Source: an uncultured Eubacteriales bacterium
GTDB taxonomy: Bacteria > Bacillota > Clostridia > TANB77 > CAG-508
Reading direction: 5' to 3'
NCBI GenBank assembly: GCA_902766085.1
Contig: CACXCH010000051.1
Coordinates: 1-36,553, forward strand
DNA length: 36,553 bases
The notes below the pieces were generated by a model. The model was not told the origin of the DNA and ran no database searches. It worked only from the letters and a program-made list of their open reading frames with translations. Below are positions 15,898 through 21,432 of the stretch, in pieces; position 1 is the first letter of the stretch, and each line of letters opens with the position of its first letter. A program made the translations under genes and the position numbers.

Positions 15898-17907
15898 TTA
15901 ACTATTTTTCTTTCTATAGTATTTTTTTACATCTTTTACAGGCGATGCGATAACATCTGCAACATCTTTAGCCTTGCTCATTGCATTTTTTGCACCTATT
16001 TCAAGGTCTGTTGCCTCACTATATCCACCTGCTCTAATACTTGCAAAATCATTTGATATTTGGGTGTTTATGTTTTTATCACTCATTCCATTATTCTTAT
16101 AAGATCTTGAAAGCTTACCTATAGAGTCTTGTAGTTGTTCTTCTGCTTCTGTTTCTGGTTCTGCACCATTTGCAATTGCATCTGCTCTTTGTCTTACCAG
16201 CTCCTTTGCTTCTAAATCAATATCATCGCCTTCATCTCTTTCAATTTGGTCTCTATAAGAATTAGCCTGTGTTCTTTGTTCATCTGTTAATTCGTCAAAA
16301 CTGTCAATACCCATTTTCTGTCTAACTCTTTCATTAAGTATATCTTCTCTTGCTTCATTTTCTGCAGCTTTATAGGATTGCTGTAGGGCATGTCTGTTTC
16401 TATTTTCGCTATATTTTCGTCCACTAGCAAAACCATTTTTAATTGCACTTGCCCCTGCTGAAAGCATTGTTGTTGGTTCTCCTGTTGCCCCTGAAAGTCC
16501 AACGCCTAAAATCATCTTGCTTGCAATTTTGTTAGCCGTGACTCCAGCCTGAAATACTCCATTGCTTGTTACCTTAGAAAGAGCATTGTTAATTCTAGCA
16601 GTTCCTTTTTGTCCACTACCCACTTTACCTCCTTTTGCTAAAGCGTTTGCTCTTTGATTGTTATTTTCTCCTAATGTACCCGCATTAGGAGAAACATTCT
16701 TTCCAAAAGATTTTTCATTTTTAGTCTCATTTTGTGGAGTAATTGCTGTTTTGGATGTATATTTGTTTTTTGCCCCTGTTGCAATAGAATTAGCATTATT
16801 CATTATTGTCGCATAATATGCTGCATGTCCAACTGTGTCTGACATAGACTGAGGATTGAAACCAAAAATTAATTTAATAATTTTTTCTGCTTCATATAAG
16901 AATACAATCATTATAAATGCAACAACAACAGCTGATAGGCTTCTCTCTGTTGTCAAAATCTTCATTGCTGATTCTACTAAAGCTAAATATGCTGCACATT
17001 GAAATGGCTGTATTAATACATTGTATGCAAACTCCTTGAACCAATTATCTAATGCTTGAGATTTATTATCACCCATTTTGTCAAGTGAATATGTTACTGT
17101 TACAAGTGGTGAAATTACTATTAAAAATGCAATTGTAATCATACGTTTTAAGTACGCAAGCAAAAATACAAATGTCATTCCAACAAGTGCTAGATAAGCA
17201 AGAGCACTTCCAAGGCCTTCCGTAAACGATAGTGACCAAGAATTTACAAAGAACTGGTCAATCATATCTATAGTATCACCCTTGTTATTAGTTAACGCAG
17301 TTGCAAAAATGCTTACAAGCCTATTATTCATAACTATAACAAATTCCATTATATAATGCAATACAAATAGTAAAGCAATACTTATAAGCCAATTTACTAT
17401 CATTTCGCTATATCTTGCTTTTTCCTCTGCTGCAGTTGATATTGCCATTCTTAGCCCTGTATATAGTAGAATAACAAATAATATCGTAGCTGATAGGTTT
17501 CTTATGCCATAATACCATATTGCAACATTTTCTCTAATTGTTTTTACCATGCCATTTTGAGGATTTAAGTTGAAGAAATCAATTGATAAAATTTCAACTT
17601 TATTAAATAAAATCTCATCCAGTGTTAAGCTTAATCCATCTTCTGCAAATAGTCCCATTACCGTTTCTAGCGTTCTTCCTATTAATAGTGGAACTATTTT
17701 AGCAGGGTAAAGCAAAATTCCTGCTACACCATCTAGAAGAACATCTATAATATCCTGCTCTGTATCAGTTGTAGATTTCCATGTTTCTATTTGTTTTTGT
17801 AACTCATCATAGGAAATTTCTGTATAATTTGGAATTTCTCTTTTAGTTGTATCAATAGAATGTCCCTGTCCTCCGTCCTGCTGGTAAAAAAACATCATAT
17901 CCGTCAT
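15898..17907 (-). CDS. VirB6/TrbL-like polytopic membrane protein, C-terminal fragment of a frameshifted gene (paralog 1)
   Basis: The 6-7 TM core is shared with the other paralogs: LYPAKIVPLLIG, IRENVAIWYYGIRNLSA, LLYTGLRMAIS, ISPLVTVTYSLDKMGDNKSQAL and LIQPFQC. The listed start is nominal. The reading frame continues from ORF 17852..18637 after a 1-nt shift at the A7 run 17886-17892. Confidence 0.7.
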   Translation of the reverse strand: MTDMMFFYQQDGGQGHSIDTTKREIPNYTEISYDELQKQIETWKSTTDTEQDIIDVLLDGVAGILLYPAKIVPLLIGRTLETVMGLFAEDGLSLTLDEILFNKVEILSIDFFNLNPQNGMVKTIRENVAIWYYGIRNLSATILFVILLYTGLRMAISTAAEEKARYSEMIVNWLISIALLFVLHYIMEFVIVMNNRLVSIFATALTNNKGDTIDMIDQFFVNSWSLSFTEGLGSALAYLALVGMTFVFLLAYLKRMITIAFLIVISPLVTVTYSLDKMGDNKSQALDNWFKEFAYNVLIQPFQCAAYLALVESAMKILTTERSLSAVVVAFIMIVFLYEAEKIIKLIFGFNPQSMSDTVGHAAYYATIMNNANSIATGAKNKYTSKTAITPQNETKNEKSFGKNVSPNAGTLGENNNQRANALAKGGKVGSGQKGTARINNALSKVTSNGVFQAGVTANKIASKMILGVGLSGATGEPTTMLSAGASAIKNGFASGRKYSENRNRHALQQSYKAAENEAREDILNERVRQKMGIDSFDELTDEQRTQANSYRDQIERDEGDDIDLEAKELVRQRADAIANGAEPETEAEEQLQDSIGKLSRSYKNNGMSDKNINTQISNDFASIRAGGYSEATDLEIGAKNAMSKAKDVADVIASPVKDVKKYYRKKNS

Positions 17908-18637
17908 CACTTGTTGTACTATAAGTATAATTATTTGTTCTATTCTTACTTTCATCGTGGTCTAATATATTTTCTACTAATGTTTTAGCACTTTGGTCAT
18001 ATACTATATAGGTAAAATTATCAATTTTACTTGGATCTTGCCCTGTTGGTATGTAATAATATATTGAACTACTTGTATTTCCCGATGCATTTGTTCCACT
18101 ATTGCTACCACTGTTTGGTGTTCCTGTTCCTCCATTTTGTGTAGTTGTTCCTTGGTTTGTAGTACCACTATTAGATGTATTACTTTTTCCAGTTAAATCA
18201 TCCGATTGCCCACTTCTATCACTTGAAGCTCTGTATGTTAATCCTATATCATCTATTTCTTCTTGTGTGCTACTGTCTTCATAATGTGCCACCCATTTTC
18301 CAGTTGAGTCTTGATATATATACATTGGATAGGAGCATTTAGCATCTCTTGCATCTTCGTTAGAAATTTCATAGTATGTACCATCATCATCTGATGTTTC
18401 ATTATATATTATTTTTTTCTTTCCTGCACCTGCGCTTGAGTCTAATGTGGTATAAACTACAATTTGTTTATTACTACTATCATAATAATAATAGTCAACT
18501 TGGCAATTTTTCTTAACAGTGTCTTCAATTGCAGCAAAGGAAACATCACTTAGTATAAAACTAATTATTATGCTAGCAATAAGTATAAAAACTATTAACT
18601 TTTTATGTCTTATATTCCACTTGTGACTCATTGACAC
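17852..18637 (-). CDS. N-terminal (signal/TM plus variable ectodomain) fragment of frameshifted VirB6-like paralog 1
   Basis: The 261-aa ORF has an N-terminal TM segment (LIVFILIASIIISFIL). Its Y/S/T/N-rich ectodomain resembles the N-termini of paralogs 2 and 3. It ends 11 codons after the A7 tract and overlaps the next ORF. The start is either GTG at 18637 or ATG at 18631. Confidence 0.65.
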   Translation of the reverse strand: MSMSHKWNIRHKKLIVFILIASIIISFILSDVSFAAIEDTVKKNCQVDYYYYDSSNKQIVVYTTLDSSAGAGKKKIIYNETSDDDGTYYEISNEDARDAKCSYPMYIYQDSTGKWVAHYEDSSTQEEIDDIGLTYRASSDRSGQSDDLTGKSNTSNSGTTNQGTTTQNGGTGTPNSGSNSGTNASGNTSSSIYYYIPTGQDPSKIDNFTYIVYDQSAKTLVENILDHDESKNRTNNYTYSTTSDDGYDVFLPAGRRTGTFY

Positions 18638-18708: not shown

Positions 18709-21432
18709 TTACTTTTTTCTGAAAAATTTCTTTGCTTTTTTAACTGGTGCTGTTACTGGTGTTGCTATAATTTTCCCCGTTTCTTTTGCAATTTTTCCAG
18801 CTTCTTTTGCATTTTTTGCAATATCTTTCGCTTTAGCTTCAATATGAGATGACTCTCCATATTTTCCTTTTCTAATATTTGCTAAATCTTCGCTTATTTG
18901 TAAATTACTATATCTTGAGTCCATTCCATCATTTTGGTAAGTAGTTCTTAATTTGTCCATAGCATCTTTCATTTCGTTTTCTGCTTCTGTTGTGGGCTCT
19001 CTACCATTTGCAATTTCATCAGCTCTTAAAGCTACAAACTTCTTTGCTTGCTCCGTTATATTCTCTCCATCAGTCTTTTCTAGATTTTCTCTAATTCTAT
19101 TAGCTTCTTTTTGCTGGTTTTCATCTAGATTATTTAGGTCGCTAACTTTCATTTGATTCATCACAAGATTATTCATAAGATTTTCTCTTGCAACATTTTC
19201 AGCATTGCTATATGCCTGTTGTAATTCGTGTTTGTTTCTTTCTTCTATATAATTTCTTCCTGCTCTTGAACCATTGTCTATTATATTTTTACTATTTTTT
19301 AAAAAAGCTGCATTGCTTCCAGTAGCAAGAGATAAACTTCCTCCTAATAGCATTTTAGATCCTGTTTTGGCCATATTGGCATAAGCTTGAAAAGCTCTGT
19401 TGTTTGTAACTGCAGAAATAGCTCTACCAACATTTGAATTTCTTTTGTGAGGATTATTGCTTGCAATTTTTCCTTTGCTTGTTGTGTAGTTTTCTTCATT
19501 GTTGTATTCGCTATTATCTACACTTGATTTGCTTGCTTTAAATTTAGAAAACTCCTCTTGATTAGCTTTCTCCTTTTCATCTATTGTATCTGATGTTATT
19601 GTAGTAGTTTTGTTTTTGCCTCCTCTTGTAATTACTCCAACTGTAGTTCCAACCAATGCTGCATTTGATACTGTTTCTGCCATCGTCCTTGCTTCAAAAT
19701 GGAATATATGTCTAATAATTTTTTCTGATTCATATATAAATAAAATCATCATAATTGCAATTAACATTGCACTTAATGAAGCCTCGTCATCGAGAATTTT
19801 CATTGCAGAACTAGCTAGTATTATGTATGATACACATTGAAATGGTTGTATTAAAATATTATATACAAATTCTTTAAACCAAGTATTTAATGCTTGAGAT
19901 TTGTTATCTCCCATTTTATCAATCGAATATGTTACTGTTACAAGTGGTGAAATTACTATTAAGAAGCCAATTGTAATCATACGTTTTAAATATGAAAGCA
20001 AAAATACAAATGTCATTCCTACTAAAATTAAGTAACACACTGCATCGCCAAAGCCTTCTACAAATCCTACATTCCATGCATTGTTATAAATTTTATCAAT
20101 TGGGTCTGGTGTTCCAATTCCTTTTTCTAAAACAGCTACAAGTTGATTATTTAGTGTCATTACTAATGCAATTATCAAATGCATTATAAACAACAAAGCG
20201 ATACTTACAAACCAGTTTACTGCCATTTGGCTGTATTTAGCTTTTTCATCAGATATTGTTGATATTGCCATTCTTAATCCAACATACATTAATACAGCAA
20301 GTAATGCAACAGCTGAAATATTACGTAACCCATAATACCAAGCAGCAACGTTTTCCCTTATTGAATTTACTGCTTCATTTGTTGATGAAAAATTGAAAAA
20401 ATCAATTTTTGTTATCTCTATTCTGTTAAATAAAATATCTTCTACAGACAAAGTTCCATTATTTGCTGTAAATATTCCCATTATGGCTTGCAATAATTTT
20501 CCTAGTAATAATGGCACAATTTTTATTGGATACAAAAAAAATCCTGCTAAGCCATTTATAACTTTTTCAAAAACAGAATCATCATTGTAATCAATTTCTC
20601 CTGTCATATATGAGTCTAAATCATCTTTAGATATTCCAGTTACACTTTCTATGTCATCCACTGCGATTTCTATCATTACTGGATGCAAAGCATTATGTTC
20701 GTCACTATTTATATAATCAGAATAATATGCTTGCCCATTTGATCCCTCTGGATTGTTCATAGTAAACGTTTTTGTACTTTCATTGTAAGAATAGTTTTTC
20801 GTAACAACTTTTTGTGTGTTTGGATTGTAATATTGTACTGTTAAAATATCCTTTGAACTATCATAAGAATATTTTGCATAGTCTTTTGATACTTTGTCTA
20901 TATCATCAACAACAGTTTCTGTATCTTTACTGTTTGAATCATCTTCTTTAATATTTTTATTATTAGTATCTTTATTGCTAGTGTCTATTCCAGTTGCTTC
21001 AGATACCTGTTTTTCAGTTATACCTGCTCCTAAAAATGAGCTTAAATATCCTCCATCAAATCCCATATATGTTAAAGCACGGCTTTGATCTAATTGTGTA
21101 GAATTTGAGAAATTTCCATTTTTATCTTTGGTATATATAGTTAATAAATATGTTGTTTGAAAATTTTCAGGATAGTAAACTTGCTGGCCAGCGTAAGTTT
21201 GCAATGTACATCTTATTCTCTCTGTTTTATCACTATTATATATATACAAACAGTTTTCTTCAGAGTCCGGATCATAGTAAAACTCAACTCCGTCAATTGT
21301 AAAGCTTGTTTCAGCGGCAAATATAGCATTTAATGATAGTGTATTTTCTATTTGTGAAAAAACTACCATTAAAATAATGATTGAGACTATTAACTTAATG
21401 AATCTTAGTTTATATTTTCTAAATAATTTCAC
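18709..21432 (-). CDS. VirB6/TrbL-like polytopic membrane protein with a large variable N-terminal ectodomain (paralog 2)
   Basis: The protein is 907 aa with a GTG start at 21432. It has an N-terminal TM/signal segment, a conserved core (LYPIKIVPLLLG, IRENVAAWYYGLRNISA, LMYVGLRMAIS, ISPLVTVTYSIDKMGDNKSQAL, LIQPFQC) and a conserved C-terminal cytoplasmic module. Confidence 0.75.
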   Translation of the reverse strand: MKLFRKYKLRFIKLIVSIIILMVVFSQIENTLSLNAIFAAETSFTIDGVEFYYDPDSEENCLYIYNSDKTERIRCTLQTYAGQQVYYPENFQTTYLLTIYTKDKNGNFSNSTQLDQSRALTYMGFDGGYLSSFLGAGITEKQVSEATGIDTSNKDTNNKNIKEDDSNSKDTETVVDDIDKVSKDYAKYSYDSSKDILTVQYYNPNTQKVVTKNYSYNESTKTFTMNNPEGSNGQAYYSDYINSDEHNALHPVMIEIAVDDIESVTGISKDDLDSYMTGEIDYNDDSVFEKVINGLAGFFLYPIKIVPLLLGKLLQAIMGIFTANNGTLSVEDILFNRIEITKIDFFNFSSTNEAVNSIRENVAAWYYGLRNISAVALLAVLMYVGLRMAISTISDEKAKYSQMAVNWFVSIALLFIMHLIIALVMTLNNQLVAVLEKGIGTPDPIDKIYNNAWNVGFVEGFGDAVCYLILVGMTFVFLLSYLKRMITIGFLIVISPLVTVTYSIDKMGDNKSQALNTWFKEFVYNILIQPFQCVSYIILASSAMKILDDEASLSAMLIAIMMILFIYESEKIIRHIFHFEARTMAETVSNAALVGTTVGVITRGGKNKTTTITSDTIDEKEKANQEEFSKFKASKSSVDNSEYNNEENYTTSKGKIASNNPHKRNSNVGRAISAVTNNRAFQAYANMAKTGSKMLLGGSLSLATGSNAAFLKNSKNIIDNGSRAGRNYIEERNKHELQQAYSNAENVARENLMNNLVMNQMKVSDLNNLDENQQKEANRIRENLEKTDGENITEQAKKFVALRADEIANGREPTTEAENEMKDAMDKLRTTYQNDGMDSRYSNLQISEDLANIRKGKYGESSHIEAKAKDIAKNAKEAGKIAKETGKIIATPVTAPVKKAKKFFRKK

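Follow-up and report, generated by a model that had tools for sequence, protein, structure and literature searches.

A +1 frame break shared by two lineages in a VirB6-like paralog of gut Clostridia, a candidate for frameshift decoding or stable gene split

Few chromosomal bacterial genes keep a frame break under selection; known cases include prfB, dnaX, copA, YopN-TyeA and the poly(A) genes of endosymbionts. No such frame break is known to have been described for a channel component of a type IV secretion system (T4SS) or for the uncultured gut Clostridia studied here. We analysed a broken gene on contig CACXCH010000051.1, whose whole length of 36.6 kb we call the window; the contig belongs to a 1.06-Mb metagenome-assembled genome (MAG) of 128 contigs that is 81% complete and has ~30% G+C. 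The gene is one of five tandem paralogs sharing one polytopic core, and it is split at a run of seven T into an upstream open reading frame (ORF) for a signal-bearing N-terminal domain (the N-ORF) and a downstream ORF, in frame +1, for a VirB6-like core. Our results make it very likely that this +1 frame break is real, that it is shared with a sister lineage and that both halves are still functional. We therefore regard the locus neither as an error nor as a dead gene but as a candidate for frameshift decoding or for a stable gene split.

Comparison with described systems places the locus among several types of frame break without matching any of them fully. In Yersinia YopN-TyeA, as proposed here, a secretion-system component has two forms, a short product of frame 0 and a longer trans-frame fusion, and the shift occurs with low efficiency at a UUU_Y-type site that has no elaborate stimulator (PMC5009743, PMC4914553). 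In that system, however, tyeA has its own start and is also made alone, and the protein is a proteobacterial type III secretion gatekeeper/regulator; here, the trans-frame part is a polytopic VirB6-like core without a Shine-Dalgarno (SD) sequence, in a Gram-positive-type T4SS-like cluster, and we infer the shift from sequence. A second type comprises corrective decoding, represented by poly(A) transcriptional slippage in Buchnera and Blochmannia and by the Oenothera chloroplast atpB, in which a frameshifted gene remains selected and a homopolymer lies at the break (PMC5009743; PMC8254509). These cases share with the window a small, A+T-rich genome, but their runs are long (about 9-10 A or more), whereas the run here is T7, and T6 in the sister lineage. 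A third type is the homopolymer contingency locus, where the homopolymer likewise sits in the 5′ portion of a variable paralog that is exposed at the surface. The difference is that the run here is short, shows no tract-length polymorphism in 19 assemblies, and has changed between lineages while the break was kept.

The upstream ORF defines frame 0 and lies on the minus strand at 17852..18631, encoding 259 amino acids (aa) from ATG 18631, which is preceded by a strong SD (AAGGGAGAAAGG); read from GTG 18637 it encodes 261 aa. Its product has an N-terminal signal/transmembrane segment, a beta-rich ectodomain and a low-complexity S/T/N/G linker, and it ends in a tail of 12 non-conserved codons between the T-run and the TGA stop (17852..17854, minus strand). 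The downstream ORF (15898-17955, 685 aa) overlaps the 261-aa form of the upstream ORF (17852-18637) by 104 nucleotides (nt) and is in frame +1 relative to it. Its frame +1 coding part (15898..17874, minus strand) begins GGQGHSIDTTKREIPNYTEISY... and terminates at TAA; it encodes a helical, VirB6-like polytopic core with LYPxK, WYYxxRN and DKMGDNKSQAL motifs, followed by a cytoplasmic C-terminal domain of ~330 aa. The frame +1 extension at the 5′ end of this ORF (17893..17955, minus strand; MKVRIEQIIILIVQQVMTDMM) is the upstream ORF read out of frame and no true N-terminus. The minus-strand sequence of the junction is GGA TAT GAT GTT TTT TTA CCA GCA GGA CGG AGG ACA GGG ACA TTC TAT TGA. The frame break lies at, or stems from, the T7 run of the coding strand (17886..17892, minus strand; plus-strand A7), the sole run of at least six T on that strand of the 2.74-kb gene. 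In frame 0 the run is read as GUU UUU UUA, which includes the +1-prone tetranucleotide UUU_U (P-site UUU at 17890-17888). Between the run and the first codon constrained in frame +1 lies a variable 11-nt linker (17875..17885, minus strand) that is conserved in neither frame. The junction sequence and the overlap of the ORFs confirm the claim of an earlier note on this DNA that one paralog is split at the T7 run.

A single +1 step within the overlap yields a 912-aa reading, which is conceptual and served searches and folds only. Its likeness to the intact 907-aa neighbouring paralog (18709..21432, minus strand), proposed in the same note, holds: both follow one plan, with an N-terminal signal/transmembrane segment, an ectodomain of ~250 aa, six to seven transmembrane helices and a hydrophilic C-terminal domain of ~330 aa, and the core and C-terminus of the split gene are 46% identical to the neighbour over 644 aa. 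We used this neighbour as an internal control for architecture and selection. In an AlphaFold2 (AF2) model of the 912-aa reading, the beta modules of the ectodomain occupy residues 45-127 and 191-250, the last ectodomain beta-strand is at ...GYDV, and the junction falls before the first core helix in a disordered linker (residues 251-272) with a predicted local distance difference test score (pLDDT) below 50.

The run of seven T recurs in independent data. It is present in the window and in 14 independent metagenome assemblies from varied samples, studies and assemblers (15/15 copies), and all 14 of the loci that we fetched carry a 259-aa ORF overlapping a 669-aa core ORF. Alignment of 10 kb from these assemblies and the window contains 57 single-nucleotide polymorphism (SNP) sites and zero indels; because the copies differ by SNPs, they are independent strains of one low-diversity population. 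The 669-aa core gene call belongs to a cluster of 12 near-identical variants on ~40 contigs, and the exact 259-aa N-ORF is found on 41 contigs.

Outside this population, the sole other cluster that the N-ORF retrieved in a full HMMER scan is a 256-aa protein that is 59-64% identical and ends shortly after ...DGYD[VI]F; no significant match to the N-domain was found in 43 other species of the genus. The 256-aa protein is encoded on sister-lineage contigs from four samples (L041-L044), which share the window's gene order: an ortholog of the neighbour (911 aa), the 256-aa ORF and the core in frame +1. The comparison between lineages is made on metagenome contigs throughout. In the sister the junction reads GGT TAT GAT ATT TTT TCA AAA GAG GAG CGG GGG ACA AGG ATA TTC TAT CGA, and the run is T6 followed by C in 4/4 contigs (AUU UUU UCA in frame 0). 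Because both lineages have 32 nt from GAT to ATTCTAT, no indel separates them and the frame offset is common to both. Comparison of orthologous loci, which the earlier note had suggested, therefore reveals the same offset and no extra disabling changes: none of the 19 copies (15 from the window lineage and four from the sister) has a further stop or indel. No intact allele was found in either lineage over the 41 window-lineage N-ORF contigs and at least 6 sister contigs, and no protein with the N-domain joined to the core was found in libraries of 5.8 billion clusters or 1.84 billion representatives. Counted as proteins, the search for an intact allele with this N-domain covered about 15 billion. 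Contigs of the two lineages (L013 for the window lineage, L042 for the sister) co-occur in one metagenome sample, ERZ1029115; the synonymous divergence (dS) between the lineages is about 0.9 at the locus.

Differences between the two lineages show where one reading frame gives way to the other. Of the 28 inter-lineage differences in the 120 nt before TAT GAT, 15 are at third positions of frame 0, and the peptide read in frame +1 shows no conservation. In the interval from +27 to +90 nt past the junction, nine of ten substitutions are at frame +1 third positions, and the peptide GGQG[HY]SIDTTKREIPNYTEISY is nearly invariant, in a segment that is still within the frame-0 ORF in both lineages. 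Because the third-position pattern changes in this way, the switch from frame 0 to frame +1 is confined to ~27 nt, which comprise the run and the variable linker. The 12 nt from the last T (17886) to 17875 differ at 9/12 positions between the window (TACCAGCAGGAC) and the sister (CAAAAGAGGAGC); the frame-0 tails after the run differ in both sequence and length (12 codons in the window versus 29 in the sister), so that the frame-0 stop has a different position in the sister. That the frame switch falls at a homopolymer is more than chance, because the gene's sole run of at least six T lies in this independently mapped interval. The same pattern bears out a further point of the earlier note, that the 'MKVRIEQIIILIV...' N-terminus of the downstream ORF is out of frame, as coding substitutions upstream of the run follow frame 0 only. 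The 669/685-aa gene calls thus begin with out-of-frame sequence, and the locus should be annotated neither as an assembly error nor as a pseudogene.

To set selection on the two halves against that on the intact neighbour, we compared the window with sister locus L042 by the Nei-Gojobori method. The N-ORF (230 codons) has a nonsynonymous divergence (dN) of 0.22, a dS of about 1.6, which is noisy, and a ratio of the two (omega) of 0.135; the core ORF (616 codons) has dN 0.12, dS 0.96 and omega 0.13. These resemble the values of the neighbour against the sister's 911-aa ortholog (907 codons, dN 0.11, dS 0.78, omega 0.14). By domain, omega in the split gene and the neighbour, respectively, is 0.12 and 0.18 for the ectodomain, 0.08 and 0.06 for the transmembrane core, and 0.18 and 0.15 for the C-terminal domain. 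Both halves are therefore under purifying selection at levels like those of the intact neighbour, and because their omega of about 0.13 matches the neighbour's, an ancient pseudogene is excluded. The recent pseudogenisation that the earlier note had listed is disfavoured as well, given a break common to a lineage at dS of about 0.8-1.0 and the low omega of both halves. Within the window lineage, the ratio of dN to dS has no power, as the core has only seven SNPs and the N-ORF has zero.

The two split genes pair with 100/100 support in a maximum-likelihood tree of the core and fall inside a clade with 100/99 support, in which the other seven members are single ORFs of 837-908 aa; in two of these seven intact genes, the homologous site has no T-run. 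The break appears from these sequences to be old and derived, having arisen once in the common ancestor of the two lineages of this small-genome Clostridia bacterium, probably by replication slippage on the T-run. What is conserved between the lineages is what would be looked for in a programmed frameshift: at dS 0.8-1.0 they have in common the frame offset and the motif U UUU UU, with both frames constrained.

These results raise the question of how the core is expressed. The reading that we tentatively put first, although we hold it with less than even confidence, is that the full-length protein is made by low-level +1 slippage on the U-run, beside an excess of free N-domain. The earlier note had ranked a +1 translational frameshift as the least likely explanation; it is now a leading candidate. 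In the proposed mechanism, the SD would drive translation of an N-domain protein of ~259 aa with a signal peptide in frame 0, and a minority of ribosomes would slip +1 on the U-run to reach the VirB6-like core. Peptidyl-tRNA-Phe would shift from UUU (17890-17888) to the overlapping UUU, and UAC would be read next. The outcome would be the full-length 912-aa protein together with an excess of the short N-domain product. The sequence UUU_Ynn is reported to be especially +1-prone in bacteria even without a stop codon (PMC5009743), and the YopN-TyeA fusion has been proposed to arise at this sequence (PMC5009743; PMC4914553). RNA-polymerase slippage on T7 may also contribute. The Escherichia coli enzyme requires at least 7 T for slippage, a threshold at which the T7 of the window lies and below which the sister's T6 falls (PMC6260861); natural transcriptional slippage sites usually have 9 or more A/T. 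In its fuller form, which is possible but which we put forward with more reserve, the proposal is of a two-product recoding gene, in which an abundant secreted N-domain and a set minority of full-length VirB6-like channel protein are made without a stimulator and have been under selection since before the two lineages diverged (dS about 0.9).

Several observations weigh against slippage. No stimulatory context was found around the run: there is neither an SD-like element 3 nt upstream nor a GGAGG at 3-10 nt upstream, downstream RNA structure is not predicted in either lineage (z = +1.2 and +1.5 versus shuffles), and all 26 tRNAs are ordinary, with no frameshift-suppressor tRNA in what is an incomplete MAG. 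In the A site stand UUA and UCA, the Leu and Ser codons used most often, and +1 efficiency at a bare UUU_U is probably low. The site is also unspecific: among 8,786 ordinary codons of the window, there are 68 in-frame occurrences of UUU_Y. Run length differs between the lineages (T7 versus T6), and with two lineages known, conservation amounts to a single comparison. At the protein level, the split core has evolved ~1.4-1.7 times faster than the neighbour's core (dN 0.073 versus 0.042). Finally, the break sits in a predicted disordered linker after the last ectodomain beta-strand, which makes two separate polypeptides structurally plausible.

Other ways of reading through or around the junction were considered and rejected. 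An alternative genetic code, with TGA read as Trp or Gly, adds only two codons before TAA, and under table 11 no other long ORF is broken. For a −1 frameshift, U UUU UUA fits the frame of the classical −1 heptamer, but the −1 frame stops after ~33 codons, short of the core. A prfB-like shift at the frame-0 stop (UAU UGA U) is contradicted by the sister, which has no stop there, and by frame +1 constraint that starts upstream. Termination-reinitiation was rejected since the position of the stop is not conserved and the window has no frame +1 start codon near it. A search for an internal promoter or terminator between the halves gave nothing convincing.

The close rival to +1 slippage is stable gene fission, which the four-way list of the earlier note did not include and which we regard as possible, if doubtful. 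Here, the secreted N-domain protein and the VirB6-like core would be translated separately and would perhaps associate. In its favour, purifying selection acts on both halves, and the break, lying in a predicted disordered linker directly after the last beta-strand, cuts no domain. The core would start just 5′ of the T-run, at ATG 17898 or 17895 in the window or within ATG GTT ATG in the sister, so that frame +1 ATGs directly precede the run in both lineages; the predicted product begins at an internal Met with the peptide MMFFYQQDGGQGHSIDTTK. In proteobacterial VirB6, the N-terminus lies outside the membrane and there is no signal peptide. Another member of the family, at L125, also consists of a short transmembrane ORF and a core ORF in three assemblies.

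The weakness of fission lies in the start of the core. Near the T-run, within 17893..17955, the candidate internal starts are ATG 17907, 17898 and 17895 only, and neither these nor the ATG at 17955 have an SD, although most genes in the window, the N-ORF included, carry one of GGAGG/AAGGA type. The ATGs lie inside an actively translated ORF and are dictated anyway by its conserved frame-0 codons TAT GAT (Tyr-Asp). Because the frame-0 stop lies 41 nt downstream in the window and 87 nt downstream in the sister, with no conservation of position, coupling by termination and reinitiation is unlikely. Moreover, an N-terminal transmembrane segment or signal is fused to the core in 116 of 119 homologs, the three exceptions being one mis-called start and two further split cases. 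The N-tail of the core, ~57 residues and highly charged, would need to cross the membrane unaided.

A third explanation, which we consider unlikely, is parallel recent inactivation, in which each lineage has lately gained one T in the same run and the gene is a young pseudogene whose low omega predates the breaks. Diversity within each lineage is tiny, and dN/dS alone cannot separate a break slightly older than the population from an ancient one; the dN of the core is also slightly above the neighbour's. On this view, the split gene would be one of five paralogs that are redundant and subject to birth and death, and sporadic breaks do occur elsewhere in the family, at L128, L125 and G004. Yet this explanation requires that two independent +1 insertions hit one and the same run of one paralog and that both became fixed; with six A/T runs of at least 6 in the gene and five paralogs in the cluster, we estimate the coincidence at roughly the per-cent level. 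No copy carries a second disabling change, and no intact allele turned up in either lineage or in the libraries, whereas that of L128 was found at once.

On a hifiasm-style contig (L128:2134-2520), a +1 break separates a 124-aa transmembrane ORF from a 710-aa core; the representative genome of the same species has an uninterrupted 866-aa frame at 98% identity (G046:C3:11072-11437), and the break is either a strain polymorphism or an assembly error. In another species (L125:1915-2440), three assemblies carry one and the same +1 break between a 159-aa transmembrane ORF and a core ORF of 852 aa. It comes from an extra T in AAC-T-GGT, not from a homopolymer, and the frame join is marked by the internal repeat FDI[ST]KY..N G...D.DLA.YI... 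In a relative from the genus (G004:C1:23370-24543), the core appears to lie in two open frames of 254 and 474 aa, corresponding to query residues 300-457 and 470-685, and may be a broken paralog.

Slipped-strand phase variation, in which the T-run toggles a full-length surface-exposed paralog ON and OFF and the assemblies show the OFF majority, is quite improbable. The homopolymer does lie on the 5′ side of a surface-exposed, fast-evolving paralog, and assemblies give the majority allele only, so that a minority ON subpopulation would stay invisible. Runs of T6-T7 are short for a contingency tract, however, and no length difference was seen between samples, with T7 in 15/15 copies and T6 in 4/4 sister copies; in the sister the run is interrupted (T6C) and the break is nevertheless retained. 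The phase variation proposed in the earlier note is accordingly unsupported. A homopolymer sequencing or assembly error, also on that note's list and conceivable in so fragmented and incomplete a MAG, is refuted by T7 in 14 other SNP-distinct assemblies from different samples, studies and assemblers and by the same frame offset in a lineage at dS of about 0.9.

The name VirB6-like, used in the earlier note, has reasonable support from a predicted structure, with no more than a weak match among sequence families. The AF2 model of the core has a pLDDT of 81.8 and a predicted template modelling score of 0.75, and its top Foldseek matches in the PDB are TrwI/VirB6 chains 7o3v_G, 8rt9_F and 8rtd_L, with a probability of 0.99-1.0, a template modelling score of 0.55-0.56 on the target and a root-mean-square deviation of 5.7 Å, at E values of only 0.07-0.13 and 15% identity. 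Pfam TrbL (PF04610) does not match the core, P0001, P0002 and P0003 have no Pfam family at E <= 0.01, and a profile search of PDB sequences with the core returned nothing. The nearest named sequence family, a weak match, is the MMCAP2_0566 conjugal transfer family of the Mycoplasma integrative and conjugative element (ICE), with E 0.0027 and 17 bits against a cutoff of 90. Like TrwI of plasmid R388 (PDB 7o3v, 8rt9), which is the top structural match, the core is a helical polytopic membrane protein encoded beside a VirB4-like ATPase; it differs from TrwI, VirB6 and TrbL in the added N-terminal signal/transmembrane segment and beta ectodomain, in the C-terminal domain of ~330 aa and in its five tandem paralogs. 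We therefore use VirB6-like as a reasonable working label for the core, one that suggests membership in the family without proving it.

The N-termini of the paralogs (18520-18637; 21310-21432) resemble long signal peptides, with a ...FA|A(E/I) motif after the hydrophobic segment. Cleavage, if it occurs, would release the 259-aa frame-0 product instead of leaving it anchored in the membrane. Two other paralogs, P0017 and P0021, are mosaic: their N-terminal domains are like that of the 907-aa neighbour, and their cores group with the split paralog (72-75% identity). This points to ectodomain shuffling between paralogs, or to gene conversion.

The gene cluster around the split gene fits the working label. 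The minus strand of the window encodes a T4SS-like cluster with a VirB4-like ATPase, ELLD and M23 domains and the five core paralogs, so that the split gene belongs to a T4SS gene cluster that includes such an ATPase. The ATPase ORF (30090-32060) matches the NCBIfam VirB4-like CD1110 family (1e-64) and VirB4 of the Mycoplasma ICE (5e-60), although neither match reaches its curated cutoff, and it also matches TraG P-loop and AAA_10 domains. ELLD and M23, encoded in the same cluster, are cell-wall hydrolase domains. Relatives of the ATPase carry the titles uncultured Clostridia or 'Clostridium sp. CAG:793' and come from rumen, sheep, deer, rabbit, chicken and human gut. Of the 41 genomes searched across the genus and order (G000 included), 39 have homologs of the VirB6-like core, usually as 3-10 tandem paralogs. 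Because the homologs are this widespread, the T4SS-like cluster (9000-35200 of the window) is probably not a sporadic mobile element, and the distribution suggests a lineage-wide chromosomal apparatus of these small-genome Clostridia.

For this family, the two leading readings have different consequences. If the core is reached by +1 decoding, the locus would provide a simple, stimulator-free UUU_U site and a way to fix the ratio of a free surface domain to its channel-anchored form. If instead the gene has undergone fission, the N-terminal signal and ectodomain of the VirB6-like family can act in trans.

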